Below are positions 1 through 64,000 of a stretch of DNA of 64,000 bases, in pieces. The DNA lies in IMG/VR virus record IMGVR_UViG_3300045988_089178. One strand, 5' to 3'. This DNA is from a virus. The notes under the pieces are model-generated. The model was not told the DNA's origin. It saw nothing but the letters and a program-made list of their open reading frames with translations, and did no database searches. The stretch's first letter is position 1, and every line of letters begins with the position of its first letter. The translations under genes and the position numbers were made by a program.

Positions 1-940
1 AGCAGATTATTTAGTTCTATGTATGGAAAAGCAAGAGAAGAAAGAAAAGAATATATTAACAGATAATAGAATGGCTACTGTTAATAAAAGAGAATGTTCT
101 TTCGAAGGGCTTGCGTCATAGATGGAAAATGGCGAGGATGGCATTTATGGTTTAATGTCAGAAAATAAAAATGTTATATTTTAGCCAAAGATTTCTATTA
201 CACAGAAAGATTTAGATACTATACCATGTTTAAAATAGTTGAGAGAAACCATTAATGTCTGGGAGGGCGCTTTAAAACGCGCTGCTGGGACAAAATAGGC
301 ATATATGATGAAAAAAGCATTAATAGAGATGCGAAAAGATTAGTATATCATTAAGCAAGCATATTAGAAACCTATTATACCATGTAAATTAACGAGATCC
401 GTAAGAACTCATATTCCTCTTGATGATTAGAGTTATCTTAATGGACAGGAGGTAGTAGTAAAGGGTATTTCGCTAATGGACGCCAATGTTGTTTCTGCTA
501 TTTTATGCAATTATTCAAAATTAAAAGAGGATAGTTATGATTAGTTTGAGGGAGATACATGGTATTTAATTCAATCATTTGAAGAAATATGTGATAAAGC
601 TCTCAAAGACTTTCCAATCTATTTACGAATTGTTGAACTCAAAATTGATAAAAAGTAGAATAACGAAATATAGGAAATATTAAAAAATGAGTTTGGTAAA
701 ACATATAGCGTTGAATATATTTCTAGTCTATGGAGAAATAAGATTCCTAAACTCATTGCGGAAGAGGCTTTAGAAGATTTTTTACGTTGGTAGTATAAAC
801 AAAAAGGATACCCAATGAAAAAATGTTCTAAGTGTGGGCAATTAAAGCCAGCCCATAATCAATTCTTTTCAAAGAATAAGACAAGCAAAGATAACTTATA
901 TAGTATCTGTAAGCGCTGTCGCAATAAGAAAAGAGGTTGA
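1..940 (+). CDS. hypothetical protein, 5'-truncated at window edge; C-terminal CxxC...CxxC zinc ribbon; read through at least 12 in-frame TAG codons
   Basis: One reading frame (phase of nt 2) stays open from nt 2 to TGA at 938-940 if TAG is sense. The standard-code track shows only fragments (e.g. 815-940 MKKCSKCG...). Confidence 0.4.
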
Positions 941-946
941 TTATAA

Positions 947-2116
947 ATGAGCCATTATTGTAAAAAATGTGGTAAAACTATGGATGATACATAGTTTTAT
1001 ACATCAAAAAATTTAGAGAAGTATCCTCCAGATGGAAAGATGGATATTTGTAAAAAGTGTCTTACTATGCACGTAGATAACTGGGATCCAGAAACTTATA
1101 AATGGATTTTATAGGAGATTGACGTTCCATATATTAAAGAAGAATGGAATGGTTTATTGGAGAAATATGGAAAAGATCCAAAGAAAGTTACTGGATTAAC
1201 TATTATTGGACGCTATTTATCTAAAATGAAATTAAAGCAATGGAATAAATACGCTTGGGCAGATACAGAAACGCTAGAGAAAGATTCCATTGATAAAAAA
1301 GTTCTTAATATGAAAGCTCAAGGATTTACAGAAGATGAAATCCAAGAGCAGTTGTCTATTGATAGAACTCCTCCAAAACCAAAAGAATTAGAGGATGTTT
1401 AGGCCCCTGTAGGAACTCCAGAATATGAAGATCCAGAGGAAGATGATGATTTTGGTGATTAGCTAACCGAAGAAGATAAATTAGTATTACGTCTTAAATG
1501 GGGCCGCGGATATTCTTGGGAAGAAAGAGTAAGAATGGAGCAGCTTTACAATGATATGATGAGTTCTTATGATATTCAAGGAGCAGGCCATAAAGATACT
1601 CTTATTATGGTATGTAAAGCTAGTTTAAAAGCAAATTAGTTAATTGATGCTGGAGATATTGATGGCTTTTAGAAGATGCAAAAAGCCTATGATAGTTTAA
1701 TGAAAAGCGGCAAATTTACGGCTGCTTAGAACAAAGGCGAATCCGGTGAATTTGTAGATTCAATAGGTGAATTAGTAGCCCTTTGCGAAAGAGAGGGTTT
1801 TATTCCTAGATATTATACGGAAGGACCCCAAGATAAAGTAGATAGAACTCTTTAGGATTTATAGCAATATACTCATACTCTAGTTACAGAGGAAATGAAT
1901 CTTGGTAATATGATCGAAGCTTCGTTAAGAGAAATAGTTAAAGACAGAGAACGCGAGGCAAATATTGATGTTGAAGATAGCGATGAGGATGAAGATTTAT
2001 TTAATTACGAGCATCCAGAATTAACAGAAGAAGATTATCAAGAGTATGAAGATATGAAAGAGTAGGAAAGAGACAAAGATGAGGAAATGTTAAATAATAT
2101 ATTAAAGGAGGTTTAA
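947..2116 (+). CDS. putative small terminase / DNA-packaging protein (N-terminal CxxC zinc ribbon, acidic C-terminal tail); about 13 in-frame TAG
   Basis: ATG 947 to TAA 2114-2116, four nt upstream of the terL start. Track ORF 1157-1402 is an internal fragment. Position immediately 5' of terL. Confidence 0.35.
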
Positions 2117-2119
2117 TAT

Positions 2120-3865
2120 ATGGCATTAAAAGATTTATTAAACCTTTCAAATAATAATAAGAAAATTGGTCTTTCCGAAGAAAGAGTTCGTGCGATAATT
2201 CCAGCAGCAAGATAGTATATAGCTTTTTGGAGAGAATATCCAGATATGTTTATTGACTTTTTGTAGACCGGCGGAGACGAGACAAGAAAAAAAGAAATTA
2301 ATTTTTATTTTTATTAGAGAGTTTTCTTGCGGGCGGCCATGAGATATAAGTATGTATACATGGTATTTCCCCGTGCCTATTCTAAGTCATTCTTATCAGT
2401 AATGGTGCTTATGTGTAGATGTATATTATATCCTGGATGTAAGCTATTTATTACTTCTGGTGGAAAAGAACAGGCAGCAGGTATAGCAAAAGAAAAAGTC
2501 TAGGAAATTTGTAATGCGATTCCTGCACTTTAGAGAGAGATTGATTGGCGAAGAGGTAAGACTTAGGAAGGAAAAGATTATTGTAAGTATATCTTCAAAA
2601 ATGGATCTTATTTTGACAACGTTGCTGCTAGAGAATCTTCTCGTGGTAAGCGTAGACATGGAGGATTAATTGAGGAGTGCGTTGGTGTAGATGGAGATAT
2701 TTTAAATGAAGTTTTAATCCCTCTAATGAACGTTGATAGAAGATGTTTAGATGGATCTGTTCATGAAGAAGAAACACTCAATAAATCCTAGATTTATGTT
2801 ACTACTGCGGGGTGGAAAAATACATTCCCATATAATAAGTTGATTACTTTGCTAGTGCGCATGATACTAGAACCCGAAAAGAGTATTGTAATGGGCGGAA
2901 CATGGAGAATTCCTGTGCTAGTGGGATTACAATCCCGCAACTTTGTATAGGAGTTAAAACAAGATGGTACATTTAATGAAGCATCATTTGATAGAGAGTA
3001 TGAATCTAAATGGAGTGGCACCGTAGAAGATGCCTTCTTTAATGGTGATGCTTTTGATAGAAGTAGAAAATTGCTTTAGCCTGAATATGAATCTTCCGGG
3101 CGCTCTTCTGCTCAAGCATATTATGTTCTTTCTGTTGATGTAGGAAGAAAGAAATGTCAATCTGTTGTATGTGTATTTAAAGTAACCCCTCAGTCTCAAG
3201 GACCAGCGATTAAGTCTCTTGTTAATATATATACTATGGATGATGAACATTTTGAAGATTAGGCAATTAAGCTAAAAAGATTATATTATGATTATAAAGC
3301 TAAAATTATTGTTATTGACGGTAATGGACTTGGTGCTGGATTGATGGATTATATGGTTAAACCACAAATAGTGCCAGATACCAATGAAGTTTTTCCTGAT
3401 TTTGGTGTAGCTAATGATGAGGATGGAGAATACAAACGATTTAGAACAGATAATACAGAATATGATGCTATTTATGAAATTAAGGCAAATGCGCCAATTA
3501 ATACCGAAGCCCATAGCAATGTTTAGACATAGTTGCGGGCTGGAAAGTTAAGATTTTTAATCGACGAAAAAGTTGCTAGAAATAAATTACTTGGTACCAA
3601 GAAAGGTCAAGCCATGAAACCAGAAGAGCGGGCAGAATATTTAAAACCATTCACTTTAACTTCTATATTAAGAGAAGAAATGCTAAATTTGCGAGAAGAA
3701 AATGAGGGTGTAAATATTATTTTAAAACAGGCAAATAAGTCTGTGCCCAAAGATAAATTCTCTGCGCTTGAATATGGATTATATTATATTAAATAGGAAG
3801 AAGATAGTAAACGCAAGCGTAAAAGTAGAAGATTTTCAGATTTTATGTTTATGAGTGAGGTGTAA
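2120..3865 (+). CDS. terL: terminase large subunit (ATPase plus RNaseH-like nuclease), about 7 in-frame TAG
   Basis: SD AAAGGAGG plus ATG 2120. Motifs KRRHGGLIEECVGVD, VTTAGWKNTFPY, IVIDGNGLGAGLMDYM. Track ORFs 3341-3526 and 3533-3796 are same-frame fragments. Stop TAA 3863-3865. Confidence 0.75.
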
Positions 3866-7155: not shown

Positions 7156-7845
7156 ATGGCTAAGAGTTCTAAAAGATTAGGTAATGCCACTTTTGTCCAG
7201 TATGGATATGGTCAAGTGGAGCCAAACCATCTTTCCGCTCCAAGAAATGGTCAAGTATATGCTCAGCTTCCCGCAGCTAGCACTATTGAGATTCTTGAGA
7301 ACGGTCAATTTGTAAAGTATAATTATGCAAAAGGCGTATGCGATTTTAGTACAGAAGCTACTTCTGGCGCTTGGATGATGGTGTTTAATGAAGTAAAGAT
7401 TTATAGAGATCGCGAAACTGACGCTGATTTTGCTATGATTAAGGATAATTATAATGCTCGTGTATATAGTCCAATTGGACAAACAGTTTCTACACTTGCT
7501 ACAATAAGTGATTATACCGGAGAAGCTGTACGCGAAGGTAGTGATGTAGCATATAAGAAAAATATGGAGACATTTACTTATCCTGCATTGATGCCAGAAG
7601 GAACTAAAATGGTACCTCGCGTAATTAAGATTAGTATTGGTGATATTTGGACTACTAATACCATTAAGGCTAATGCTGGAGAACTTGCAGTAGGCGATCG
7701 TCTAAAGATTGATACTGATGGATATTTAACTAAAGATACTGAAACTTCTGCTAAAGGTGGAGATTTAGATCCTATCTTTGCAGTAGTAAAAGTGTATACT
7801 ATGCCAGATCTTCAACCTGGTGTAAAAGTACAGCGTGTAGGTTAA
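7156..7845 (+). CDS. hypothetical head protein (decoration-protein position between scaffold and MCP); no TAG
   Basis: Intact 229-aa track ORF with SD AAGGAGG; gene order as in lambda C-Nu3-D-E. Confidence 0.4.
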   Translation: MAKSSKRLGNATFVQYGYGQVEPNHLSAPRNGQVYAQLPAASTIEILENGQFVKYNYAKGVCDFSTEATSGAWMMVFNEVKIYRDRETDADFAMIKDNYNARVYSPIGQTVSTLATISDYTGEAVREGSDVAYKKNMETFTYPALMPEGTKMVPRVIKISIGDIWTTNTIKANAGELAVGDRLKIDTDGYLTKDTETSAKGGDLDPIFAVVKVYTMPDLQPGVKVQRVG

Positions 7846-7864
7846 TTGGAAGGAGTGAAGAAGA

Positions 7865-8917
7865 ATGTTAGATAAAGCTAATTTACTTAGTTTAATGAAA
7901 ACTGTCGCTAATGCAAATCCTTCTGGTACCTATAGCTATCAAGGAGAGTCTTTTAGCTATGACGCTTTAAATACCACTTTGCGTAATGAGCTAAATGAAT
8001 TTGTTGGCACAGATGAACTTTATAGAGAAAATAAAAATACTCTATTCTCTTTAATTGAGCAGACTATGGATGAAGTTGTTCCTAATCGTTTACTCAATTC
8101 TTATGGCAATTTTGCTGAGATTAGAACTTTCGCACAAGGCGACAAGCCTGTATTTACTCGTAGAACTGGACTTACTCGCGCTAAGCAATTCATTACTCGT
8201 GTGGGGCTTGCTGGTGTGTATGAGACCTTTAAGCTTGGTTCTGAGAGCTTCGAAGTTGGAACAAGCGCCATTGGTGGAGCTGCTCGTATCGGATTTGAGG
8301 AGTTCCTTGATGGAAGAGTAAACTTTGCAGAACTTACTCAAATTGTAACAGAGGGTATGCAAGAGCTTATTTATAGAGAGATTGCTCAAGCTCTTATGGG
8401 TTCTATCAATCAGCTTCCCGCGGCAAACCGTTGTGCTGTTGCTGGTTTTGACGAACCAACTATGGATTATCTTGTAAATACTGCTACTGCTTATGGTCAA
8501 CCAACTATTTATTGCACTCGTGAGTTTGCAGTAAAAATGATTCCAGATAATGATGCTTGGATTTCTGACAATATGAGAGATTAGTATTGGGGAACTGGTT
8601 ATCTTGCAAATTACAAGGGAACTAGAGTGGTAATTCTACCTCAAACTCTTGAAGATGAGACTAACTCCAAAAAGATGATTGATCCAGGTTATGCTTGGAT
8701 TATTCCTGGTGGAGCTGAGAGCCGTCCTGTAAAAGTTGCTTTTGAGGGTACTACCCACGTGCGCGAACGCGATGATAATGACGACTGGTCTCGTGATATT
8801 CAGGTTTACCGTAAGGTTGGTGTCGGTGTAATGATGGCGAATAACATCTTCTCTTATGTTGATACTGAACTTCAAGGCGAGCTTGATAATACTAACCCAA
8901 ATCCAAATAATGGTTAA
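7865..8917 (+). CDS. major capsid protein (lambda gpE-like), single in-frame TAG at 8582-8584
   Basis: Track ORFs 7865-8584 and 8627-8917 share a frame and are joined by one TAG; about 350 aa; followed by a strong terminator. Confidence 0.6.
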
Positions 8918-8922
8918 TTGAC

Positions 8923-8958
8923 AGGGGATAGGGAAATATCCCTATCCCCTTTTATTTA
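8923..8958 (+). terminator. rho-independent terminator after MCP gene
   Basis: 11-bp stem AGGGGATAGGG/CCCTATCCCCT, loop AAATAT, then TTTATTTATT. Confidence 0.7.
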
Positions 8959-8981
8959 TTGAGAAAAAGGAGATAAAAATT

Positions 8982-9515
8982 ATGAAAAATAGTTGCACTG
9001 TTTATAATAAGAGCGCAGGTCGTGTTGTATATAGATTGCCTGAATTGGGCGTGCGCCGTATGTTTTACCCTGGAGAACACAAGGAACTTGAAGTATCTGA
9101 ACTAGAAAAGCTAGTACAAACGCCTGGAGGCCGCAAATTAATTTATAATTACTTACTTGTAGATGATAGAGAGATTGTTGAATATCTTATTAATGGTAGG
9201 GTTGAACCAGAGTATTGGATGAAAGAAGAAGAGATTGATTCTTGGATGAATACGTGTTCTTTAGATGAATTTAAGGATGCTCTTGATTTTGCTCCAGAAG
9301 GCACTAAAGATCTGATTAAATCCCATGCTATTTCCCTTCCTTTAAATGATATGTCTAAAAGAGATGCTTTGGAAAAACAATTAGGATTTAATGTTACTAA
9401 AGCATTAGAATTAACAGCAGATGATAAAAAGAATCCTAAGGAAGAGAAACCTGTAAGAAGAGTGTCAACTACAAGTGAGGATGCTCCAAAACGCAGAGTA
9501 GCTATTTCTGATTGA
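8982..9515 (+). CDS. hypothetical protein, no TAG
   Basis: Intact 177-aa track ORF with SD. Confidence 0.5.
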   Translation: MKNSCTVYNKSAGRVVYRLPELGVRRMFYPGEHKELEVSELEKLVQTPGGRKLIYNYLLVDDREIVEYLINGRVEPEYWMKEEEIDSWMNTCSLDEFKDALDFAPEGTKDLIKSHAISLPLNDMSKRDALEKQLGFNVTKALELTADDKKNPKEEKPVRRVSTTSEDAPKRRVAISD

Positions 9516-12665: not shown

Positions 12666-14057
12666 ATGCGTTTTGGTATTCGTGAGATTTGCGATGTAGT
12701 ACTTCGTGCCAAAAGCTATCAGACTTTAGGTAATCGTAAGTTCTATAAAAATGAACCAGTTTTGTACTTTGACACTTTAAGAACCTCTACTCTTGAAGGT
12801 GCTGCAACAACTGTATACGCACAGGGCGGACGTGGATATACTAGATTGATTGCTTGGGAAGGTGAGCGTACTCTAACATTTACAATGGAAGATGCTTTAC
12901 TTTCTCCAGAGAGCTTCTCTATTCTTTCTGGTGCAGGTCTGCTTGATGCAACAAAAGAAGCTCCAATTTACGTTCATCAAACTTCTCAGGTAGAAGTTGA
13001 AACAGCTAACACTATCGTGATTCCTGATAAAGCTTGCTGGAATGGATTTGCAGATCATGAAAATGAAATGTATCATCGTTCTGCTGACATTTTTGTAATG
13101 GTATTAGGAGATGATGGTCAAGTTAATGCTGAACCATGCATTCCTGTTTCTGTTTCTTATACAGAGGACGGAAAATCAACTTTAACTTGCTATTCTCATG
13201 CGGGAGTGCTCCCATCTGGTACTATCGTTTTAGTTGACTATTATGTAAAGCGCACTGGTGGCGCCCAGATGATTGAGATTACCGCTGATAAGTTTGGTGG
13301 AAATTATTATCTTGAAGCTTCTACTCTATTCCGCCGTGAGAGCGATGGCGTAGATATGCCTGCTGAATTTATTATTCCTAACTGTAAGGTTCAGAGTAAC
13401 TTCACATTCAGCATGGCTGCTAACGGTGATCCATCTACCTTTACATTCACAATGGACGCTTTCCCAGACTACACTAAGTTTGATCAAACTCATAAAGTTC
13501 TTGCCGCTATTCAGGTAATTACTGATGAAACTGGGGAAACCGAAGGATCTCGTGAGCCATGCTCTGAGAATGTTGGTACTTATGAGAGTGAAGCTGCTGA
13601 TGTAACTGTAAATTTTGTTTCTAACAGTGCCACAGAGGCGGAACTTGATGTAACTGGTACTGTAACAGGAAAGGCTTATGATACTGAGGCTTATGGAGAT
13701 ACAATTCCAGAAGCCGCACAAATTAGCCTCCAAATTCCAGTAGAGAGCGATAGTACCAAGTATACTGTAGTAACAACTAATCCAGCATATGAGAAATACT
13801 TCTCTACTGATGACCGTATTGAGGGCAATACAAAGACTCAAACCGTAGATGGCGCAGAATTGGCAGATGGCCTATTAGTAATTCTTACTAAGGAGAGTAA
13901 TACAACTCCTATTACAGCTAAGATTACTAAGATTAACGGAGACTTTGAGAAGAGTTATACTATTAATAACAAGCTCAGTTTTGCAGAAAGCACAAGCACT
14001 TATTCTGGCGCAAAAATGCGCAATAAGTTAGTCTCTGTTAGCGATGACACCATTTAA
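12666..14057 (+). CDS. major tail protein (tube or sheath-like, C-terminal Ig-like region); no TAG
   Basis: Intact 463-aa track ORF with strong SD; TAG-free inside a TAG-dense operon; followed by strong terminator; position between neck genes and tape measure. Confidence 0.5.
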   Translation: MRFGIREICDVVLRAKSYQTLGNRKFYKNEPVLYFDTLRTSTLEGAATTVYAQGGRGYTRLIAWEGERTLTFTMEDALLSPESFSILSGAGLLDATKEAPIYVHQTSQVEVETANTIVIPDKACWNGFADHENEMYHRSADIFVMVLGDDGQVNAEPCIPVSVSYTEDGKSTLTCYSHAGVLPSGTIVLVDYYVKRTGGAQMIEITADKFGGNYYLEASTLFRRESDGVDMPAEFIIPNCKVQSNFTFSMAANGDPSTFTFTMDAFPDYTKFDQTHKVLAAIQVITDETGETEGSREPCSENVGTYESEAADVTVNFVSNSATEAELDVTGTVTGKAYDTEAYGDTIPEAAQISLQIPVESDSTKYTVVTTNPAYEKYFSTDDRIEGNTKTQTVDGAELADGLLVILTKESNTTPITAKITKINGDFEKSYTINNKLSFAESTSTYSGAKMRNKLVSVSDDTI

Positions 14058-28962: not shown

Positions 28963-28976
28963 GGAGTTGATAGTAT

Positions 28977-48510: not shown

Positions 48511-48990
48511 TTACCAAGCGCATTGATGCTATTTAATATGCGCAAGGCCGATACAAACAGCGTCACTTTCATCCTGTGTGGGTTTTTCCCCATAATTATA
48601 AAAAACATAATTCTGAGCATTTTTTTTCTACTCTGGTCGAGTTTTTCCTTTTATACCCAATAAAGATTTCCATGTTACTGCTAAAATAGAAGAATGGGGA
48701 ATTTTTTCTTGTTCTAGTAATTCAGAAACTACCCCATATACTTCTGCTAAAATCTTAAAAGTCTAAACATTATTAGAAATATTATTCTACTACTATATAT
48801 CTTCAAAAACTACTTCATCTATATGATACTATTCAATAAGATCTTTAATCTTCTATCTTATTTTTACTAATCTAGTATCTATATTATTATCTTCAACAGC
48901 AAATTTACCAAAAGTTTTTAACTTATTATCTTCAAAGACCGCATATCCGGTAATCTTCGAACTCTAATCGAGTGATAATAGATTACTCAT
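48511..48990 (-). CDS. ruvC: RuvC-like Holliday-junction resolvase, 8 in-frame TAG in 159 codons
   Basis: ATG 48990 forms an ATGA overlap with the dut stop. N-terminal LSLDQSSKITGYAVFE (RuvC motif I region) and C-terminal PTQDESDAVCIGLAH; no ORF in the standard-code track. Confidence 0.6.
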
Positions 48991-50442: not shown

Positions 50443-50985
50443 TTATTTTATTCTGTCAACAATAATTGCACCAATAGCATTGCCTATTGTAACTACTATT
50501 AAAAATAATACTATATCAATAGAAAATACGCCTGCGGCCAGGGCGTAACAAAGATCGGCAATACAGTGTTCTCCGCCGAATAATATAAAACCTGTTACGC
50601 AGACTGGCACCATATAATCTTTATTTCTTTTAAACGAGGATACTGCTGAATATATAAATATGCCGCAAACTATCCCCTTTAAGAAAACTAAATATAGTGG
50701 GATCGCGATCTTAGCAGAGACTAGAGATAGGGCGGCTGCGTGCGGAAAGGCTAAGATCCCGCACGCTCCAATAATATTTCCTATTAAAATAATGAAGTTA
50801 TCTTTTATATCATTTTTGCTCTTGATATAACCAACTGAACCTGTAAATAATTTAAACTACATATTTAATATAGTCAGTAGGCCAATGGAAAACATAATAG
50901 CTCCAACTATACCTCCAACAGATAAGTAGATATAGCTAGCTATTGCTATCATTAATCCTCCTAAAATACTCTTTACAAAGTTCAT
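50443..50985 (-). CDS. polytopic membrane protein (small transporter / ECF-S-component-like), 1 in-frame TAG; alternative start 50952 with SD AGGAGG
   Basis: Hydrophobic 170-180 aa frame open from an ATGA overlap with the nrdG stop to TAA 50443-50445; missed by the track because of the TAG. Confidence 0.4.
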
Positions 50986-51455
50986 TTTAGATAAATTATT
51001 TTTTGATTGCGGCTTCCTCTAAGAGGTTCCGTAATATCTCTTTCATGTTCAATATATGGCCCATCAATTAGCACATCAACTAATTGGAATATATTCTAAA
51101 TAACTGTATCTGTTGAATTTTTTAAATCTTCATACAAGTATCCAGTCCATAAATAAACCTTTAAATCAGGAATTGTTTCTTTTGCGGTTTGTATTACCAA
51201 ATGAGTTAGAAATGTATTTTCTGGACATAGTGGCTCGCCGCCCATAATACATAGAGTTCTTTTAACTCCATTTGCAGTAAGCCCTTCTAAGATTGAATTA
51301 AGGGTTTCATGGGTAAATTCTTTTCCTCCATTAAAATCCCAAGTCTCTTGATTGTGGCAACCTTGACATCTATGAGGACATCCCTATGTAAAAAAACTCA
51401 AAGACACTCCAGGTGCGGCAGAAAAGTCATTTTTTATAATACCTGCATACTTCAT
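50982..51455 (-). CDS. nrdG: anaerobic ribonucleotide reductase activating protein (radical SAM, CPHRCQGC), 2 in-frame TAG
   Basis: ATG 51455 in ATGA overlap with the nrdD stop; CxxxCxxC cluster; stop TGA 50982-50984. Confidence 0.7.
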
Positions 51456-53665
51456 TCCATATACCCCACGTGTTTAATTCTCGCTTGTGTTTCGGCTACT
51501 TTTCCTTTATTAAAGGCTGTTTTATAATTTCCAGTAAGATATCCTGTTACGCGTCTTAACTGTTGAATATCTTCACTACCACACATTGGACACTTATCAT
51601 TAAATTCACCAGTATAACCACATTTTAAGCAAGTATCATTAGGGACATTAATTGCAAAATATGGAATATCATGATTCATAGCATAATTAACTAAAGTCTC
51701 TAATGCATCAATATTATTCTCCATACCACTATCAAGTTCAACATAAGTGATACAACCGGCAGAAGAGTAGCCAGTTAATTGGGATTCAATATCAATCTTA
51801 TCAAAAGGGGACATTTGTTTCCATACAGGAACATGAATAGAGTTAGTAAAGTATTCTTTATCACTTACATTTGGAATAATTCCGTATTTATTTTTAAATT
51901 TAGTCATAGCTGTATAACATAAATTCTCGGCTGGAGTAAAATATACTCCGAAATTTAGTTGATATTTTTCTTTATACTCAGCACATCTATCTTTGAATAA
52001 TTGCTCAATACGCTTAGCTAACTTCATTCCCTCTTCTGTGGTATGGTCTTTACCAATAAGAATTTGTAGAGTTTCAGCTAATCCAAGTTGTCCCATAGCT
52101 AAAGTTCCATGTTTTAAAGCGCTTCGAGTAGAAATTCCATCATATCCAGCCATTAAGCCGTTTTCATACATGAATTTCGCGGATTCCGCGGGTTGAGAAC
52201 AAATATACTCAAATCTCTCAAGAAGCATATCTTTAGCATCATTTATAGCTTGATCTAAGAAATCAATAAAAGTTTCAACACAAGAGTCGTCTCCGCTTGG
52301 CATGGTTTCCCAATACTTTTTAGCCTCCATAGCCAATGTTGGCATAATAATTGTTACTGGACAAATATTTCCACGACCATCTTTTTGTTGGCCTAATCCA
52401 TTAATGTCGAACCCATTCGCAGTTCTACAACCCATAGTAGAGAAGTATGTCTTAGGATCATTTTTATCATATCCTGCATTTCCGCTCCAATCAACATTGG
52501 CATAATTGGGATATAATCTTAAAGCAGTAGATTTTAAAGCGATTCTGAATAAATCATAATTGGGATCACCAGGAGCTCGATTAATTCCTTTTGCACATTG
52601 AAAGATGCCACAAGGGAAAATAGAAGTTTTGTGAAGTCTACCAAGTCCCTCAATAGAAACTTCAAGTAAAGCCTTAATTACCATTCTCCCTTCTGGAAGA
52701 GTACAAGTACCATAGTTAATAGAAGTAAAAGGTAATTGATTTCCAGATCGAGACTACAAAGTATTTAAATTATGATACATACCTTCAACTGCTTGATGAG
52801 TCTCTCTTTCTGTCATATCTATAGCATATTGATACGCATTTGGGTATTCTTTATATATTTCACTATCAATAGGAAGAGTAGAATTTAATCTATCATCCAT
52901 AGATAAAGTATGTTCAACATAAACAAGTCCATCATTAAAATGTTTATAAAAACTCTTTCGTACATATGGAACCATAGTCCAATCCAAGTGAGTAGCAGAT
53001 ACTCCACCAAATTGTTGTAAACTCTGTAGTTGGAAAATAACTGCAACAAGCTGGAAAGCGGTATTTACAGAACCCGCGGGGCGCACATCAGTTTGTCTAG
53101 TATTAAATCCCTTTTCAAGTAAATCATCGAAAGGAATAGAAAGACAGTTGTGCATACCTACAGCATAAGCATTTAAATCATGAATATAAATTCTATTATT
53201 TTCATGATTTACTCGTGATTTATTAGAAACTAAATAATCAAGAGCATACCTTTTCATTTGTAAATCTGACGCTGCTCCAACTCGTCCGCCAAATGACATT
53301 TCATCTACATTGGCATTTTGGTTTTCAATATCAGAACCTTGAATCTTTGCAGAAAAGGCTTTAATAAAATCATCTTGGCCTTTTCTTGCAATCTCTCTTT
53401 TATATCTATATCTAATATATTCTTTGGCTACGTCTCTACGTTCAGATTTCATAAGATAATCTTCAACCATATCTTGAATTTTTTCAACGGAAACTACATC
53501 ATCAGATGTTTTTACAGCATACTTAATTTCATCTGCAATATCATTTGCTGTATCATCTTCATATAATGCCCCATCAACTTCGATGAAAGCTTTATTTATA
53601 GCGTTAATAATACGCTCTTTATCAAATGGTACTAGGATACCATTTCTCTTTCTTACTTGAAGCAT
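51452..53665 (-). CDS. nrdD: anaerobic ribonucleoside-triphosphate reductase, 737 aa, single in-frame TAG at 52754-52756
   Basis: Track ORFs 52754-53665 (ATP-cone VRKRNGILVPFDKERI) and 51452-52684 (CPMCGS zinc ribbon, RVTGYL glycyl-radical region) are in one frame, joined through TAG; stop TGA. Confidence 0.8.
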
Positions 53666-53733: not shown

Positions 53734-54279
53734 TTAATAAAATTGTCCAAATATAGTATCAACAGCGACATCAATATCTTCTAAGGTGTCGTTTTTAAGA
53801 GTTTTATATTTTATATCATCAAGGAAATGAAAGTCTTCCGCATCTGCTTTGTATCTTCTAATAATTTCATTTACGTCAGGATTTTCTTCTCTATTTAACT
53901 ATCTTAATAATCTCTATTTACCCGCGGCCCGCACATAAAATACATAAAGCTCAATATTGTCATCTTCTTGCAGACATCTTACTCCTTCAGGGTTAAAGAC
54001 CCCTATATTTATTTTGTCTATTGTTAGACTTTTTCTATCTGTACCATAATGCCAATCATTAAATTCTGTTGCTTCTAGCATATCTCCATTAAGAACTTTT
54101 TTTGTAAATTCATCAATAGATAGAAAATAATAATTAACTCCTTCTTTTTCCCCTTCTCGCGGAGGGCGTGTAGTACAACTGATAATTTCATTGAAATAAG
54201 AAGGATATTTCTCCATAATACTATGGAGAATAGTATCCTTCCCACTTCCTGCTTCACCCATTAACGCTACTATCTTCAT
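53734..54279 (-). CDS. guanylate/deoxynucleotide monophosphate kinase-like protein, 2 in-frame TAG
   Basis: P-loop GEAGSGKDT and TTRPPREGE motif. Track ORF 53914-54306 ends at a TAG and continues in frame to TAA 53734-53736. Start placed at the ATG with SD (overlaps the dnaE end). Confidence 0.55.
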
Positions 54280-57200
54280 CCTCTTCTTCTCCTTGTTTTC
54301 TTTCACTTCTTAAAATTAAGTCTGTACCATTGACAATTTCATCAATGTGATAAAGTTGATGACCTCCAGAACTTGCATATTTCTTTGTTACAAATTCATC
54401 TCCGCGTCTAATTCCCTGCACAACAATCATATTACCTCTATTAAACCATGATTTTTCTATGACCTTTTTTGTGCCATCTTCGTTTCTCTGGAAAGTTTGC
54501 TTATCAAACAACGCGAAGTATTCTTGTCTAAACTTAACCGCTACAACTCCAGTGGTGGTAAGAAGATATACCGTACTTTTTACTTTATTTTTTGCAATAC
54601 AAGTTCCACAAATCTTATGTAGCTTATAGATAGGAATTAATGAAGCACCCTTTTTAAATACCTTATCTACCTGAGGTTCTTCTGGTAAACTAAAGAAGTC
54701 TACAAAACCATACTTACTATTGTTGATATTTGATAATTCATGGTCATGATAATAAAAGCACAAAGATTCCATTTCCCAAGAAGAAATATTACCAGAAGCA
54801 TATTTCTTCCAATCTTCCATAAAGATTGTAGTATTTAAGTCATCTAAAATCTTTTCTTTGTTTTCTGCAATCCATGCTCTAAATACATCCATGTAACTTT
54901 GATAAACCTTATCCCAAGATTTTATATCAATATACCAAATTAAATTATCTGTTTCAAGCAGTTTTTCGCAATCAATTTCAACTAAGAAAGTTATTGCTCT
55001 TTCATCTAGCTTATACTTACCTGCATTATATGGGTCTTTACATTCTGCCTTTAAATATCTATTAAATTCGTAAACTCTTTTGGGCATTACAAATTTTTCA
55101 TCATCAGGAATGAGATTATATCTCATTAACCCAGGTAGATTTTGTAAAGTAATTCTTTTCTTTTTATCACAGGTAATCCATATATATTGAATCATTGCTT
55201 CCATCCTAGGATGAAACTGATCAAATCCTCCGCCCTTAATTAAAGAAATCATTGCTTGTTTATTTGGATGTACTTTATTAAAGAAATCAATTAAAGATAC
55301 ATAGGGGCGATTATCAACAATGGTTTTAATTAAATCATTGTTTACATTAGATAACCCTTTTAAACCAAACAAGATTTGATTATGTTCAACATCTGGTTTA
55401 AAACCAAAATCAGAATGATTAATGTCAACCAAAGACACTTTTATACCAGCATTACGAATTTCTCCAATGGCTTTAGCAATCTTGGTATAATCTGATTGTT
55501 CTCCTTCTTCTTCATTAATGGCACCGCTATTGACAATAAGATATGCTGTATTCCAATATACTGGATTAAAATGGGTAGCAAGATAAAGAGTTTGCATACC
55601 AATAAAGCTATAAGCAAGAGCATGGATAATAGAGAAACTATAGCCCATTTGCGGGCCGATGCCATAATTCCATACATATTGTCCTAATGCTGGAGACTTT
55701 GCAGAATTTAAAACTTTTTCTCTTAATTCTGGAATTTTGTTCATTTGCTTCTTACCAACTATTTTTCTTGCAGTATTAGCTTCAGCTAACGTAAATCCAC
55801 AAATATTTGGGTCTTGAAGCATAGTCATCATTTGTTCTTGGCTGGGAGGCACACCATAAGAACGTAAGAAATGAGGTTCAAGAATTTTTTGTTCTTCTTT
55901 TGTTAAACCCTACTGATCCATTTCTTTATACCAAAGAGAAATATTATTTTTAAAACGAACATACTTCTCCATTGGAGTTTCTGCACCCTTTTCCGCAGTC
56001 ATTAGTCTCATCAATCCATTAGCGTCCGCCATTTCGTGCGGATTTTGAGGCTTAATCTTTTTTGCTGCTTGAGCACCAACACTAGAATCAAATTGGAAAC
56101 AGCCAAGAACATCTCCATTGGCAAGAGCATCCCACATTTTTTTATCGTCTTGTGGGAGGACAGATGGATGGAGGTATTTATTATAGACTTCACGCAATGT
56201 TAAATCTTTTTCAATAGCGCCATCTTTTTGCAATAGCTCAATAGTTTGAATAATAATATCCTGTACTGCTGTAAGCAAGAAATCATACTTGACAGATCCA
56301 GCGGCTTCTTGATCATGAAGATCCCATTGAGTAATTAATGCTCCTTTTGGAGTTCTCATTACTGCGGCTGTATCAAAAATATTTTGATCAAATAAGATTA
56401 CTCCAGAAGCATGACTCGAACGTTTATTTACTAGTCCTTGTATTCTAGTAATAATATCTAATAATCCAGGATACTGATTCACAGTATTTACAAAAACTGT
56501 AACAGGTTTACGACCTTTTTCTGGATTACCATTAACTACATCCTCAATAGGCCATAAGAAACCTCTTTCTTGTGGAATAAGAGAACTCATATATTGAGCC
56601 ATATCTACATCAATTCCATCAGGATAATCTTCTGAACGATAGCCTCGACAAGCTGTTAAAATCGCAGATTTAGTTCCTTCTGTGCCAAAAGTACAAACTT
56701 GTACTAAGCCAAGTTCTCCTCGTTCTTTTCTAATCTCCGCGAAAATCTTTTGAATTTTTGATGGTGCCAAATCTAGGTCAATATCACCAAGTTCAGTTCT
56801 TTCATCGTTAATATAGCGCCAGAAAGGAAGATCCCATTCAATGGGATCTAGTTGAGTGATTCCAAGAAGATAATGGTTCAAAGCAGCACAAGCTGATCCT
56901 CGCCCCGCGCCTACGGTACTTCCGCAATTCCAGAACAAATCTACATAGTGTTTTAGAGTATTTGGATATGCGAACATACAAGTTCCTAGTTTTTCTCCAA
57001 TCACTCTCTTTACTCTTGCTTCTTCTTCTAATCTTTCAAGATATCTAGGATCATTAAATAAACCTTTTTTCTGCAAAGCAATAATACATTCATTTACCCA
57101 ATATCTTTCTTGAATATTATCGCTCCAAATCAAACTAGATAGAACAGGATATTTATCTTCCCACTGATATGGTACAAACCCTTTTTTATAATCTGTTACT

Positions 57201-58135
57201 TCTACTTCTGGAATTGATTGATGACGTTCAAGAGAATAAAATTCAATTTTATCTTTCATTTCGTTTGAGCATTTAAAAATCCAATCAATTATGCCTTCGT
57301 CATAACTCAATCTAAGAAGTTCTCTAGTTTCTTGTTCATCCATCAAATGAGTAAACTCATAGAAACTATCAACCTCTCGTTCTCCACCCTTAGAATTAAG
57401 ATACGCTTTATGAACATATCTATCTTCTTTTGTTAAGTAATGCGCATCTGTTCCAATACACATATTTATATTAAAAGCCTCAGAGATACTTAACATTCTT
57501 TTATTTGCGATAATTTGATCTGGATAAGAAGCGGGAGCACATTCAATGTAAAAATCATCTTTACCAAATACATCAATGCAGAATGTCATAAAATCAACAA
57601 TTTGATTATGGTATCTCTGTGCGTTAATTTCATCTTTAATTTCTTCACAATTATGAAGATTTAAAATGGAACTACCAAGTTCTCCACCAATACAAGCAGT
57701 AGTCCCAATAATATGACCCTTAAATCTCTGCATTACATCTTTAAGCTCAGATTTAAGCAAAGGAACGCGTTCCATTCTACGGTCATAATATCCATTCATC
57801 CAAGCAATAGAGGATAACTCCTTTAGTCCTCTATATCCTTCTTTATCTTTCGCGATTAGGATAAAGTGATAATACTTTTGTCCTAAATCTCTTGTATCAG
57901 TTAAATAAATCTCATTTCCTAATGCAATCGTAAAATCGGGATTTTGCTCCCTAATTTTCTTTGCATATTTATTTACTCTCATATGCGCCGAAAGGCTTTC
58001 GTGGTCTGTGATAGCAATTCCCGTCAATCCGACTTCAATAGCTTTATCAATCAGTGCCTCAGGTTTATTTATACAATCTAGCAAACGCAAGTTACTAAAC
58101 TCCGTATGCGCATGATTGTTAAAGTACATACCCAT
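54254..58135 (-). CDS. dnaE: DNA polymerase III alpha subunit (DnaE-type, N-terminal PHP domain), 1293 aa, single in-frame TAG at 55910-55912
   Basis: Track ORFs 55910-58135 (MYFNNHAHTEFS PHP motif, polymerase core) and 54254-55852 are in the same frame, joined through TAG; stop TGA. Confidence 0.8.
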
Positions 58136-58178
58136 AATTATACCTCTCTTATTTTCTTTATACTTACATTATAGCATA

Positions 58179-59360
58179 TTAATTCTTTAATATCAATGTA
58201 AGTTTTTCAATGGCCCTTGTAACTGTAGTATATATCCATCTAGCGTGTTCAATTTTATCAAATGGAAATGATTCTTCTAATACTAAAACCTTATCCCATT
58301 GTGAACCTTGTGCTCTATGTCCAGTAATTGCATAACCAAAATTAAACTCAATAGGAAGATCTGGATTTTCTTTATTTCTCCTAATTAAATATTCTTGTTG
58401 AGGAGTAAAAAACTTTTCTCCAGTAGTTAAAGCGGTATAGTCAATACCAACTTCTCTATATGTATCATTTGTTGTTTCAATATCTGCAAATAAAACAGGA
58501 GCAGACACTAACTTTCCAGCGAGGATATAATCAATAGATTCCATTCTTTTAGTTTTAATATATCCAACAGAGCCATTTATGAGTGGATTTTCATGTTTTT
58601 CAGAGCAAGTATCCCAACAGTTCCTCAAACAAATAATCTTATCATCTATTTCTGGCTCAAATCCTCTACCTAAATCATCTCTAATATAAGAATTAATATC
58701 ATGCCTACTTTTATTGGTAGATACAAGAATCTAGTCTGCCCAAAAATACATTCCATCGCACAGATCATTTTTCTTAAAAACTTGAGCGTCATGACCGCTA
58801 AAAGGAGATAATCTCTTTCCTTCTCTAATATCCATGCTAAGGCAAATAATATCACTTTCTTTTGCTTGACGCATTACTTCATCAAGAAAAATATGCGGAT
58901 TATCCAAAATATGATTATCTTGTTTCTTATCTATTGGAGGAATCTGAAAAGGATCTCCGCAAGCTATTACATAGATATTATGACTTAAAAGCAAATCCCA
59001 CATATCTTTAGGAAGCATACTTACTTCATCTACAACAATTACTCTATAAGGCTTTTCAAGAACAGTCCTTGGTTTATAGAAAAATTTACCATTTGGCATT
59101 TGCTTACTATAATATAACAATTTATGCGCGGTCATAGCATTATGGCAACCTTTTTCTCGCAATACCTCTGAGGCTTTTCCTGTAAAAGTAATATATGCAA
59201 CTTCTTCTTCTGGATCTACCTCAAGAGCTGCTATAATAAAATTAATCAAGGTACTTTTTCCAGTACCTGCGTAACCCGCTATTACAGTATAGGGCTCGTT
59301 GTGATTATATCTATCTATTGCAATGCGCAATCCTTCCTCTTGTTTACGAGTTAATTCCAT
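58179..59360 (-). CDS. Dda/RecD-like SF1 helicase, single in-frame TAG at 58731-58733
   Basis: Walker A GYAGTGKST, Walker B VVDEVSM and C-terminal ITGHRAQGSQWDKV. Track ORFs 58731-59375 and 58179-58628 are in the same frame. Start chosen at the ATG with SD (the track starts at 59375). Confidence 0.65.
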
Positions 59361-59604
59361 TTTTCCAAACCTCATAACTAATATTTTCTTGAACTCTATA
59401 ACCCTTTTTCCTTAAATAATCAGCAAATTCATCAGAAGTCATCCAATTAAAAACATATCCTTCAAAAATAGGATGATCTTCTAAAAATGCACCATAATCA
59501 TCTTCTATTCTATCCATAATATCATGTATATCCATATAACCTATTATATACTTATCTATTTGAATAGAATCTAAAAATTTTATAGTTTGTTTTAATTCTT
59601 CCAT
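59344..59604 (-). CDS. hypothetical protein
   Basis: Intact track ORF. Confidence 0.4.
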   Translation of the reverse strand: MEELKQTIKFLDSIQIDKYIIGYMDIHDIMDRIEDDYGAFLEDHPIFEGYVFNWMTSDEFADYLRKKGYRVQENISYEVWKNGINS

Positions 59605-60494: not shown

Positions 60495-62246
60495 TTAAAA
60501 GTAATACTTCTATCTACTTATAATTTCATAATCTGTAATAATAATTTGTGGTGTCACACTACCGAAGTATCTATTTACTTCTGGTTTACCAATCAAATTT
60601 ATACTCACGCAACCTAATTCGCTAGATAAATCTTCTAGCTCCTCTTCGCTTGATTTAAACTTGATGCAAGTAACTCCATTTGGTAATTGAATCTTCAAAG
60701 TAGGATTCTTGTCTCGTGACATAAGACTAATCATGTCATTTGTTACTGCAACATTTTCTACCGCAATTAGCGGTTCGTCGATATTCTATCCCCAAAGATA
60801 CTTAGAATTGCCTAGTTCTAATATATCTTTAGAATTAATATCTGACATAGAGTAAATAAAATCTACCTTATAGCTTGGCGAAAATTCTATATCTTTTAAT
60901 TGATTGTCTGACCATGTAATAAAATCTTCAAAATCTTTTTCATAAATGCCAAAGCCAAAAGCATTTGCGTGCCCCTCAGCTAAAAAGACTAAATTTGAAT
61001 CTCTTACAAATTGTCTAAAATCATTTAATTTAGACTTTTCGTATCCTCTAGCTGATCCTTCCCAAGCATCTTGTTCATTGTTTACAGTCTTTGATAAGAG
61101 AATAACGGGGCGCTTATACTTACTCATTAATTCATTAGCAATTAAACCAGTAATACCTCTATCAACCTACATATCTTCTAGTTTAATTACTAAAAGTTTA
61201 TGCTATAATAGATTTTTTTCTTGAATAATATTCTCTATTTGTTCAACTTCGGCATCTCTAGTTCTAGTCTAACGATTCTTAACATTAGTGCAAACTCTTA
61301 ATGCTTGCTCTAATCTAGTTTCCTCTTGCCCTTTACATCCTCGTTTAGTAGAAGGAATAAGATCATATGCTTTCCATTCAAGCATACTTTCAAATAAAAT
61401 CTACTTTTCATCTTGAGTACCCATACGAGTAATGGCATTAACAAGAGGAACAATATAAAACGCTACTCCAATAGGAGATAAATCTCCTCTGCCTAACTAG
61501 TAAGCATTTTTATCAGCCATACCTTTAATAAAAGGATTGCGGAGACTTGACCTCTGTAGCCCCTATTGAATAAGATAATGAGTTTCAAAATCTCTAATAT
61601 CCATCATATCTCCTACAAGACCGGTGGCTACAATATCAAGGTAATTGTCCGCATAGGCAGTTCCGCAAATACTATCCATATACTAACACAATTTATAAAC
61701 TACTCCTACACCAGATAACGATTTTGTTGGATAATCGCATAACTGATTATTAACAACACAGGCGTATTCAGATATTTTATCAGCTAAGTGATGGTCTATA
61801 ACTAATACATCAATTCCGCGATTAGCCAATTCTTCATGCTCTTGATAGTCGTTAGAGCTTGAATCCGGTGCAATAACAAGAGAAATATTATCGGGGATTA
61901 ATTCTGGTTTTATTCCATGAATTTTACCAGAATGGAAGTTATAAACAAACTTGTTAATTGCAGAGGGAAACTGCGCATGAAGATAATTTAGCAATAATGC
62001 AGAAGAGGTGTAACCATCGCAGTCGCTATCTACCTAGACATAGATATAAGAATCGTCTTTTAAAATGTGCTTAATAATTAGCTTAGCAGCGCTTTCAATA
62101 TTATTAAGAAGTAAGGGAGATAAATTATCTTTTTCTGATACTGTTAAATAATGCTATATATCACCATATTTAATACCTCTATTAACTAATACCTACTCTA
62201 AAGCACTATAATCCTAATTTCTTGGGTTAATTAATGAATATTCCAA
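60495..62246 (-). CDS. RecJ-like DHH-family single-strand exonuclease, about 583 aa, about 13 in-frame TAG
   Basis: DHH motif I DSDCDGYTS and motif III VLVIDHH. Track ORFs 61683-61994, 60786-61127 and 60510-60734 lie in one frame that stays open from TTG 62246 (SD AAGGAGAG) to TAA 60495-60497 if TAG is sense. Confidence 0.55.
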
Positions 62247-62249: not shown

Positions 62250-62534
62250 TTAATCACTCTCCTTATTATGTGATAATCCAGTTCCTTTGCAAGCTCTACA
62301 TTTTATATAGTCATTAAGATCGTTTGGATCTGGCCTATCATCTTCCGCGCAAGATCTAGATCTTAAAACATGACCAGTTCCGTTACAGTACTCACATGCT
62401 TGATTAATTTCTCTAAGTTTCTCTAAACTGTCAAAATAGGGTTGTATTCTCTTATTATAATCATCTGCTAATTTTCCTATTTCTTTTTCTATTGCTCTAA
62501 TAGCAGGCACTAGATTTAAAATCTCTTTACTCAT
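62250..62534 (-). CDS. hypothetical zinc-ribbon protein (two CxxC pairs)
   Basis: Intact track ORF; stop TAA. Confidence 0.45.
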   Translation of the reverse strand: MSKEILNLVPAIRAIEKEIGKLADDYNKRIQPYFDSLEKLREINQACEYCNGTGHVLRSRSCAEDDRPDPNDLNDYIKCRACKGTGLSHNKESD

Positions 62535-63630
62535 AAGGAATTATCCTTTCATTTAGTAACTCTTCAAAAATCTGCGGTCCCTTGTCTATAGGACTTGCTT
62601 TATATGGCAAAATCATTCGTTTATCAAAGATAGCAGATATGCGTACATTCTTACTATATTTGTTATATATATGAATTAACTTTGCTTTCAATCTTTTAAA
62701 TTCATCGTCGCTAATTTCGACAAATTGTCTATCAAAAGCAACTATGATTTCATTAACTCCTAAAGATTTGAGTAAATCTATATGATAACTAGATATACTA
62801 CTTCCACAACAAGCTACAGATATATCATTATCGTACCCATAGTAAGACTGATACATAAGACAACTCTTTTCAGATTCAAATATAATTGCAGCTTTTACTT
62901 TTCTTATATTCTCTTTGCTATGGTTTAAATTATATAAATTCATACTTAAAGGATGATTATATAATTGTCTGTTCACCATAAGAGGTCTATATTTTCCGTA
63001 TCTTTCTGCATCTTCAGAAGATAATGTTCTTCCCCTAATTCCTACTAATCTATTATTAATATCAAAGTGAGGAATTGTTATTTGTCCTCCTCCCGGATAA
63101 TACCCAATAAAATTTCTTTTACTAACTTCGGGTAAGATTCCTTCTGCTTCCCATCCAGCAATTCTAGGATAAGAAAATCGAGTAAGAATAATCGGATTAT
63201 ATTCCTTCAAGCAAATAGGCTGTTTAGGTTTTGGTAACTGAATATTATGTCTTTTAAAGATATCCCAATCTTCTAATTCTTTTTCTTCATCTTCTAGTTC
63301 TATTCCATCAAAACCAAAATATCCAGCTATATAATCCATAGCATTATATAGTTCCCACTTTTTACCTTCTTGCTTTTTTTTAACCTTTATACATAAATCA
63401 AATATATCAAAAGTAGGATCTATACATCCAGTATAACATCTAAAAAGTTTTGTATTTTCGTAATAATATAACTTTCTTGATCCCTCTCCTGGAAGATTAT
63501 GACATATAGTTTGGGAGATGAGCCCACCATCTACATATTCAGGCTCACCGCCCCATGCTTCAATTAAATCATAAATTTGTTCTAACTCTAATTTTCCTTT
63601 TAGTTCATCTTTATCATAATAGCGTGACAT
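62527..63630 (-). CDS. DNA primase (zinc-binding CHNL...CYTGC plus Toprim-like region), no TAG
   Basis: Intact 367-aa track ORF; position adjacent to the helicase/RecJ/polymerase genes. Confidence 0.55.
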   Translation of the reverse strand: MSRYYDKDELKGKLELEQIYDLIEAWGGEPEYVDGGLISQTICHNLPGEGSRKLYYYENTKLFRCYTGCIDPTFDIFDLCIKVKKKQEGKKWELYNAMDYIAGYFGFDGIELEDEEKELEDWDIFKRHNIQLPKPKQPICLKEYNPIILTRFSYPRIAGWEAEGILPEVSKRNFIGYYPGGGQITIPHFDINNRLVGIRGRTLSSEDAERYGKYRPLMVNRQLYNHPLSMNLYNLNHSKENIRKVKAAIIFESEKSCLMYQSYYGYDNDISVACCGSSISSYHIDLLKSLGVNEIIVAFDRQFVEISDDEFKRLKAKLIHIYNKYSKNVRISAIFDKRMILPYKASPIDKGPQIFEELLNERIIPYE

Positions 63631-63632
63631 AA

Positions 63633-63854
63633 TTAAGCATCATATATGGAAATATTTGTTACAGTTCCTTTAAGACCAAATTGCTCATTAATTACTTTTG
63701 CAACATAATCTTTAGGATTTTGTTTCTTCTCCGTCTCGCTTCTATCGGCAAGCATAGCATTAAACATTTTTTTACTCATACGATACTCTAAAGATTGATT
63801 GTTTTTCATATTAATTCCTCCAAAATTATTTTTCCCATGCCGCGGGACCTTCAT
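63633..63854 (-). CDS. hypothetical protein
   Basis: Intact track ORF. Confidence 0.45.
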   Translation of the reverse strand: MKVPRHGKNNFGGINMKNNQSLEYRMSKKMFNAMLADRSETEKKQNPKDYVAKVINEQFGLKGTVTNISIYDA

Positions 63855-64000
63855 CTACAATTACTCTAATATCTTCAATACTAATCATTTCATGTCTCCA
63901 ATTAGTACAGAATTGTGGTAATATACGACAAGTGCCTAAATTTGCTGAACACCATAGATAAACTCCCTTATATGATCCTCGTCTATTCTTATAAATAGAT

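Follow-up and report, generated by a model that had tools for sequence, protein, structure and literature searches.

The stretch of DNA analysed here (the window) comprises 64,000 nucleotides of the IMG/VR virus record IMGVR_UViG_3300045988_089178. Very probably, it represents 64 kb of a tailed phage of about 146 kb, which carries an SPbeta-like structural module, is common in human gut metagenomes and uses genetic code 15. In most of its genes, TAG is a sense codon and the terminators are TAA and TGA only. Codon comparisons between strains and relatives show glutamine (Gln) to be the predicted residue at TAG. Moreover, two classes of TAG use can be distinguished, in which TAG accounts for either about 50% or 0-10% of the Gln codons. 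The best explanation overall, which we hold with considerable confidence, would be a code-15 phage that combines these two classes with a staged read-through by its own tRNA(CUA).

TAG as a sense codon in the window

With 33% G+C, the window is AT-rich. If TAG is read as sense, 96% of it is occupied by stop-to-stop open reading frames (ORFs) with a minimum length of 100 aa, as compared to only 42% with the standard code. The longest ORF has 753 codons under the standard code and 2914 codons with TAG as sense; without TAA and TGA, such a length is not attainable by chance at this base composition. Reading TGA as sense gave no comparable gain (50% cover, the longest ORF being the same), and reading TAA as sense yielded numerous short spurious ORFs, as expected for AT-rich DNA. 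A non-overlapping set of 59 genes, which occupies 94% of the window, contains 362 in-frame TAG codons in about 20,100 codons, corresponding to 40% of all Gln codons. Not a single in-frame TAA or TGA is present across the 59 genes, and off frame both triplets are plentiful in them (TAA 762 and 1152; TGA 259 and 1124). Recoding of TGA or TAA was therefore rejected on the basis of ORF cover and the absence of both codons in frame. A first-pass annotation of the window had proposed that TAG is a sense codon throughout and that only TAG breaks the genes; both statements hold, and the suggested re-prediction of the genes with TAG as sense gave the gain in cover described above as well as profile matches that cross the TAG codons. 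Likewise, no frameshift breaks were found in the reading frames, in agreement with the earlier view that the gene fragments lie in frame.

The 58 gene stops inside the window consist of 44 TAA and 14 TGA codons. TAG was observed within five codons of the gene end in three genes, while about five are expected by arithmetic, so that there is no signal of a role in termination, and the TAG positions are uniformly distributed along the genes (Kolmogorov-Smirnov p = 0.17). TAG as a terminator was rejected because of the lacking end enrichment and the uniform spread, and the same distribution led us to reject an N-terminal or C-terminal position bias. The gene overlaps that had been quoted are present, namely TAATG between the reverse transcriptase gene and g28 and ATGA for dut/ruvC and nrdD/nrdG. 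Furthermore, the base following the 362 in-frame TAG codons is A in 38% of the cases as compared to 28% after CAA and CAG (p = 0.0009, chi-squared), and this excess may reflect selection for efficient suppression.

The genes of the window are arranged in three blocks. The packaging, head, tail and fibre genes are located on the + strand (2-38229), the middle contains a diversity-generating retroelement (DGR) and small genes, and a replication and nucleotide-metabolism block occupies 48-64 kb on the - strand. The major features are as follows, amber referring to TAG.

2120..3865, + strand: putative large terminase (TerL), 581 aa, 13 TAG among 23 Gln codons
4366..5868, + strand: portal protein, 500 aa, 10 TAG; phrog_2739, E = 2e-79
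7156..9515, + strand: amber-poor block consisting of the decoration-like gene g07 (0 TAG), the major capsid gene g08 (1 TAG among 13 Gln codons) and g09 (0 TAG)
12666..14057, + strand: tail tube protein (YomU_Tube), gene g15, 463 aa, 0 TAG among 12 Gln codons
14117..15559, + strand: gene without assigned function (no family match), 480 aa, 19 TAG (4.0% of codons, 70% of Gln codons)
16441..24996, + strand: tape measure, 2851 aa, 99 TAG (3.5% of codons, 49% of Gln codons); PhageMin_Tail match on record
25048..38229, + strand: distal tail and fibre genes g19-g26, 2 to 28 TAG apiece
48511..48990, - strand: RuvC-like resolvase, 159 aa, 9 TAG among 13 Gln codons; ATGA overlap of its start with the stop of dut
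48987..49553, - strand: dUTPase (dut), 188 aa, 0 TAG
50982..53665, - strand: NrdG (2 TAG) and NrdD (1 TAG among 30 Gln codons), ATGA overlap
54254..59375, - strand: DnaE-type polymerase (1 TAG among 52 Gln codons) and superfamily 1 helicase (1 TAG)
60495..62246, - strand: RecJ-like exonuclease, 583 aa, TTG start, 13 TAG
62527..63630, - strand: primase-like gene, 367 aa, 0 TAG, without a Pfam match; the primase label stems from the first-pass annotation

Protein profile searches were performed with the Pfam and PHROGs models after placing X at the TAG sites. A single match aligns residues 34-499 of the portal protein to positions 59-496 of the 501 positions of phrog_2739 and thereby crosses 10 TAGs. 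Similarly, positions 2-148 of the 148 positions of the RuvC Pfam model were matched across 9 TAGs, and the DHH, DHHA1 and RecJ_OB matches of the RecJ-like protein cross 13 TAGs. Pfam matches that continue through the TAG sites were also obtained for NrdD, DnaE, the helicase, NrdG and a guanylate kinase. The Pfam scan of the virion proteins gave almost no matches, and matches for this group came from PHROGs; for the block 7156..9515, the Pfam match on record is YonB, the SPbeta capsid family. The assignment of the terminase is based on the position of the gene, walker-like motifs and thousands of full-length homologues. Its PHROG matches, phrog_15503 (residues 5-218) and phrog_24618 (residues 353-578), both lack an annotated function, and we read them as half-length families that arose because genes of related phages had been called in fragments.

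The TAG counts given in the first-pass annotation were right for the RecJ-like gene (13 in 583 codons), DnaE (1 in 1293), NrdD (1 in 737) and the helicase (1), as were the zero counts for the primase-like gene, dut, the 463-aa tube protein and the decoration-like protein. However, the TAG densities of about 7% for the tape measure and about 8% for the gene at 14117-15559 were twice too high in comparison with the listed counts (99/2851 and 19/480), and RuvC contains nine rather than eight TAGs.

Several further features of the window should be mentioned. The TTG start of the RecJ-like gene directly follows the upstream stop. Public gene calls for this phage already read through TAG, and for the RecJ-like gene they use an internal ATG; the resulting protein of 394 aa loses the catalytic DHH domain, which is thus dropped even by code-aware calls. 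The DGR is complete and located at 38710-43233 on the - strand. It comprises the reverse transcriptase gene (39372-40589), an Avd-like gene (41029-41523) and two repeats, namely the template repeat (40896-40998) and the variable repeat (41619-41721). The latter is located at the 3' end of the target gene (41605-43233), which encodes Big_3 and DUF6273 domains, and 13 of 13 mismatches between template and variable repeat are at template adenines. According to coordinate arithmetic, an IMG/VR contig of the same phage breaks within the template repeat. A homologue of serine recombinases (resolvases) is encoded at 45027-45734 on the + strand. Its profile is matched only from position 55 on, and 77 further open codons without ATG are located upstream. 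It may be an invertase beside small tail-fibre-like genes; alternatively, the gene may be truncated.

Glutamine at TAG and the phage-encoded suppressor tRNA

According to the first-pass annotation, the inserted amino acid cannot be read from the DNA, and Gln was favoured by analogy with other recoded phages. Codon comparisons between strains and relatives do give an answer, and it is Gln. In 12 strain loci that are 97-100% identical, TAG is conserved in 719 of 735 cells. At the 21 sites that vary between the strains, TAG is replaced by CAG at nine and by CAA at seven sites (16 of 21 being Gln codons), and the remaining five sites carry TCG, TGG, AAT, GAG and CCA. An exchange between TAG and CAA is a two-base change, yet it is frequent, which points to synonymy. 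For instance, the single TAG of DnaE at 55912 is replaced by CAG in six of the six other strains compared. In three of these strains, one CAG codon of the window's DnaE gene, at a different site in each strain, is replaced by TAG, and in a fourth strain a TAG is found opposite CCA. It was also observed that the rare TAGs turn over in amber-poor genes without any fixed site (DnaE and NrdD sites in the loci L002-L007).

The same picture emerges from more distant comparisons. For the Gln test, only true CAA and CAG codons were counted, and the result is therefore independent of code-15 translations of the relatives. In three diverged recoded relatives with 75-85% TerL identity, the TAGs of the window are located opposite CAA (59), CAG (22), TAG (36) and GAA or GAG (19). 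In these alignments, the probability of finding Gln opposite TAG (0.570) equals that of finding Gln opposite a Gln codon (0.568), and in an empirical-profile likelihood, Gln exceeds the second-best residue His by 169 log units, with Glu and Lys following. Among 50 TerL relatives from genome bins, the codons opposite TAG include CAA (168), CAG (45) and TAG (99). The alignment of TerL homologues that had been proposed as a check gave the same answer, as seven homologues with uninterrupted standard-code ORFs have Gln (CAA or CAG) in 52 of 91 cells at 13 TAG sites. Taken together, the strain swaps, the equal probabilities and the likelihood bear out Gln as the predicted residue. Alignments with a protein collection that also showed Gln at the TAG sites were discounted since these proteins have probably been translated with code 15.

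A suppressor tRNA with a CUA anticodon is frequent, though not universal, in code-15 phages. ARAGORN detected no tRNA gene in the window and none within 10 kb of it. The remainder of the genome was rebuilt from IMG/VR contigs of the same phage by walking outward, using the primase-like gene as the anchor. The same-phage loci that overlap the window are 97-100% identical to it. The rebuilt part corresponds to positions 32,495 to 125,043 of the contig IMGVR_UViG_3300045988_084596 (146,360 bp), its overlapping pieces being free of conflicts, and the window is the rest of this contig in reversed orientation. The new 83 kb harbour 29 tRNA genes, including two for tRNA-Gln (UUG and CUG) and exactly one with a CUA anticodon. 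This tRNA(CUA) gene has a length of 76 nt (ARAGORN; positions 130-205 of our locus L061, about 84.66 kb on the contig), and scores 59.8 bits with the Rfam tRNA model (threshold 29). Its neighbours are TAG-free, and it shares the strand of the replication genes. Thus, the dependence on a suppressor tRNA that had been postulated for this phage has found its candidate.

The acceptor pairs 2:71-6:67 and base 72 of the tRNA(CUA) are the same as in the tRNA-Gln(UUG) of the phage. Moreover, the tRNA(CUA) has an unpaired U1-U72 and the discriminator G73. In E. coli, a weak 1:72 pair and G73 are identity elements of the glutaminyl-tRNA synthetase (GlnRS). These acceptor-stem features serve only as support for the Gln assignment, which is carried by the codon comparisons. 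The tRNA(CUA) is 84% identical to a tRNA-Sup of the phage phAss-1 (see below), which has three suppressor tRNAs. For the tRNA-SUP-CTA gene of phAss-1 that has been analysed, tRNAscan-SE gives Gln; the copy was not specified and may differ from the one compared here (PMC10607447).

Neither release factor 2 nor an aminoacyl-tRNA synthetase, which some code-15 phages possess, was found among 17 scanned proteins of at least 240 aa encoded outside the window or among the Pfam matches on record for the flanks. A second tRNA(CUA) of 90-93 nt with a long extra arm, U1 and G73 was observed in many relatives (L163, L152-L160 and L019, for example L019 3377-3467) and in phAss-1; ARAGORN did not detect it in the tRNA set of this phage. 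Further genes outside the window (L008 1-2293; about 86-110 kb on the contig, L061 and L020) encode a peptidyl-tRNA hydrolase (PTH2), PARG, FolD, a Thg1-like tRNA-His guanylyltransferase and PhoH. Moreover, there is a NAD-salvage set, of which NAMPT and a phosphoribosyltransferase-domain protein were assigned by Pfam and a NadE-like gene by eye only, and an 813-aa protein with major-vault-protein domains. The presence of PTH2 and Thg1 suggests an investment in tRNA handling.

Two classes of TAG use and their possible origin

The use of TAG per codon is heterogeneous among the genes (chi-squared = 221, df 58, p = 8e-21), and so is the use of TAG relative to CAA and CAG (p = 1e-15), which confirms that the density is not uniform. 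TAG makes up 49% of the Gln codons in the late module g01-g26, 16% in g42-g59 and 18% outside the window. In the 67 genes of the whole genome with at least eight Gln codons, the TAG share is bimodal with a second mode at 40-60%; 21 of these genes have no TAG and 25 are at or below 10% (r106, a spurious antisense ORF of the greedy gene caller, was left out of these statistics). The low class (0-10%) includes DnaE, NrdD, the helicase, the primase-like gene, dut, gyrase, ligase and the NAD-salvage genes, as well as the virion genes for the decoration-like protein g07, the capsid protein g08, g09 and the tube protein g15. The terminase, the portal protein, the tape measure, the fibres, RuvC, the RecJ-like protein, homing-endonuclease-like genes and the endolysin belong to the high class (about 50%). 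The endolysin gene, which is located outside the window, contains 9 TAGs amid TAG-free neighbours.

Both classes recur in related phages. The four virion genes g07, g08, g09 and g15 are TAG-free or nearly so in 15 of the 15 recoded relatives tested, and the difference to the other late genes is significant in each of them (Fisher p 6.5e-10 to 0.016). The contrast between RuvC and dut (9/13 versus 0/6 TAG per Gln codons in the window) is found in four relatives with 9/12, 7/14, 10/13 and 3/6 for RuvC and 0/4, 0/6, 0/5 and 0/4 for dut, and it holds down to 44% RuvC identity. The first-pass annotation had described early and highly expressed genes as amber-poor. The pattern itself stands, as it recurs in relatives, while the labels "early" and "highly expressed" derive from gene function. 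Likewise, the replication module is amber-poor for most of its genes but not for the RuvC and RecJ-like nucleases, which are amber-rich.

A staged read-through could proceed as follows. Early in infection, the unmodified host machinery would translate the TAG-free genes. The phage tRNA(CUA) would then accumulate and be charged with Gln by a host enzyme, and the charged tRNA would allow the synthesis of full-length proteins from TAG-containing messages. Late, lytic and nuclease functions would thereby be delayed or limited at the level of translation, even within one operon. Release factor 1 would compete with the tRNA, and suppression is probably incomplete. Proteins needed in bulk would avoid TAG because release factor 1 still competes, and selection would remove TAG from the proteins that are needed in the largest amounts. 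Going one step further, the TAG share may be a conserved, gene-specific setting, which gates late, lytic and potentially toxic nuclease genes (RuvC, RecJ-like, homing endonucleases, endolysin) regardless of the operon and is zero in the high-copy virion proteins since suppression is leaky. We put this extension forward tentatively and give it somewhat less than an even chance. If it is true, TAG density would encode timing and dosage and could serve to predict the temporal class and abundance of proteins in uncultured recoded phages.

Some observations weigh against the staged read-through by the phage tRNA(CUA). Overall, the tRNA(CUA) is only 54-68% identical to the tRNA-Gln genes of the phage itself, and it comes from a same-phage contig of another sample and not from the record of the window. 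Many Bacillota lack GlnRS; in a host of this kind, charging would require a glutamyl-tRNA synthetase together with an amidotransferase that accepts the CUA anticodon. Moreover, the standard code of the host is assumed, and the labels "early", "late" and "abundant" were inferred from gene function. Finally, timing alone cannot explain the pattern, since the capsid and tube genes belong to the late genes and yet are free of TAG.

The TAG density could also be no timing device at all. TAG, CAA and CAG might drift freely, with TAG being purged according to the amount of protein needed, and the contrast between early and late genes would then follow only indirectly, from how strongly the genes are expressed or from their history. 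This is conceivable but on the whole unlikely. Swaps between TAG and CAG or CAA are indeed frequent even at 97-100% strain identity, the single DnaE TAG varies from strain to strain, and the TAG share ranges from 0 to about 50% within the clade. Moreover, the capsid and tube proteins are late and abundant and yet TAG-free, which argues against timing alone. However, free drift would not account for a TAG share that is bimodal and not graded, for the contrast between RuvC and dut, which persists despite the ATGA overlap and at low RuvC identity, and for a TAG-rich endolysin gene amid TAG-free neighbours. In addition, there is no obvious reason why replication enzymes should be required in larger quantities than the portal protein or the terminase. 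Thus, the capsid and tube genes fit drift combined with selection on expression, whereas the contrast between dut and RuvC and the endolysin fit gating better, and the two explanations are not exclusive.

It is very unlikely that the phage simply mirrors a host in which TAG is itself a sense codon or release factor 1 is missing, so that no switch of the code would occur upon infection. The code of the host could be in either state. However, the phage possesses its own tRNA(CUA), and many of its genes have a TAG share of zero or at most 10%. Furthermore, close relatives in the clade use the standard code throughout. The terminase ORF of the TerL relatives L096, L101, L104, L116, L121, L122 and L129 (51-77% identity) is intact in the standard code, and three of these seven have zero TAG in 12 to 14 orthologous genes, which are all that could be aligned; standard-code and recoded members therefore share a clade. 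Likewise, the standard code has been reported for those hosts of recoded phages that have been examined to date (Borges et al., bioRxiv 10.1101/2021.08.26.457843; PMC10607447).

A reading of TAG as pyrrolysine (Pyl), Tyr, Trp, Glu, Lys or Leu, or an ambiguous reading, is extremely improbable. ARAGORN labels every CUA tRNA as "Pyl", Glu ranks second opposite TAG (13%) and the relatives have the second, longer tRNA(CUA). These points are opposed by the likelihood of Gln, which is far above that of His, Glu and Lys, by the match between the two Gln probabilities and by two-base swaps between TAG and CAA within the species. Moreover, this phage lacks the tRNA with the long arm, and no Pyl genes turned up, although no search was aimed at them. 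That the TAGs are damage in a decaying prophage, pseudogenes or assembly errors has been refuted. Only their fragmented look under the standard code speaks for it, whereas one stop codon of three interrupts the genes without any frameshift, 98% of the TAG cells are conserved in 12 independent assemblies, and the phage is prevalent in public assemblies.

Prevalence, host and comparison with known phages

In human gut data, the phage is encountered very frequently. For two TAG-free proteins encoded in the window, the index of the public assembly collection lists 403 and 569 blocks, with contigs of up to 146 kb. It probably infects Bacillota. A host assignment from the titles of metagenome-assembled genomes was rejected because the labels Oscillospiraceae, Eubacterium, Treponema and Bacteroidales on phage-sized contigs result from binning. 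A standard-code reading loses or fragments more than half of the coding capacity of this phage. The phenomenon as such is known and the lineage has so far been undescribed, and it adds an SPbeta-like lineage to the code-15 phages. As fully standard-code relatives are found in the same clade, in which the TAG share ranges as described, it is a good case for studying the origin of recoding. The TAG-free capsid and tube genes and the contrast within an operon are modest additions, which may have been published elsewhere, and they lead to testable predictions on translational gating and suppression efficiency.

Phages with genetic code 15 have reportedly been described by Ivanova in 2014 as reading TAG as Gln with a phage suppressor tRNA. 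Recoding of TAG or TGA is found in many clades of gut phages, together with suppressor tRNAs, a bias towards structural and lysis genes and clades of mixed code, and the same late-gene and lysis bias has been explained by the same model as here (Borges et al., bioRxiv 10.1101/2021.08.26.457843). In crAss-like phages, Gln at TAG has been demonstrated by proteomics (Peters et al. 2022, PMC9523058). The phage of the window resembles the code-15 phages in its TAG-only, in-frame recoding, in having Gln at the aligned positions and in possessing a phage tRNA(CUA). Likewise, structural and lysis genes are recoded, the replication genes are largely compatible with the standard code and the clade is of mixed code. 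It differs from them in that neither release factor 2 nor an aminoacyl-tRNA synthetase is among the proteins scanned here and in that four virion proteins, probably the most abundant ones, are consistently TAG-free. The latter is not stated in the preprint by Borges et al., in which the word "capsid" is absent.

The closest published genome is that of phAss-1 (OQ749652), for which the genus Phassvirus has been proposed and which is listed by NCBI under "Caudoviricetes code 15 clade" (Babkin et al. 2023, PMC10607447). Both phages are from the human gut and share a genome size of 133-146 kb, a tape measure of about 3000 aa and TAG as a codon for Gln. About 30 tRNAs including tRNA(CUA), of which one is 84% identical, NrdD and NrdG, the NAD-salvage genes and the capsid family are also common to both. 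However, the capsid proteins are only 52% identical, and a megablast search with positions 1-25000, the only part of the window that was queried, gave no nucleotide match to the GenBank phages including phAss-1. Moreover, the phage described here has a single suppressor tRNA, as opposed to two or three, and its gene is not located beside nrdD. More than about 80% nucleotide identity and synteny with phAss-1, which define Phassvirus, were not found. Thus, the capsid identity, the lack of a nucleotide match for the part queried and the placement of the tRNA gene locate the phage outside this genus.

The structural module links the phage to SPbeta-like phages such as Bacillus SPbeta and the group of Enterococcus phage EF1. 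In public contigs, the same genes have recorded Pfam matches to YonG, YonD, YonB, YomW, YomV, the YomU tube, YorF and YorH, whereas none of the Yon, Yom and Yor families was found in our own Pfam scan with X at the TAG sites. The capsid protein is 36% identical to that of Enterococcus phage EF1. As far as is known, these SPbeta-like phages use the standard code. Finally, a similar genome size and a similar mixture of TAG-recoded, TGA-recoded and standard-code members have been described for the Agate clade of large gut phages, which our phage resembles as judged by this description only (Borges et al., bioRxiv 10.1101/2021.08.26.457843).

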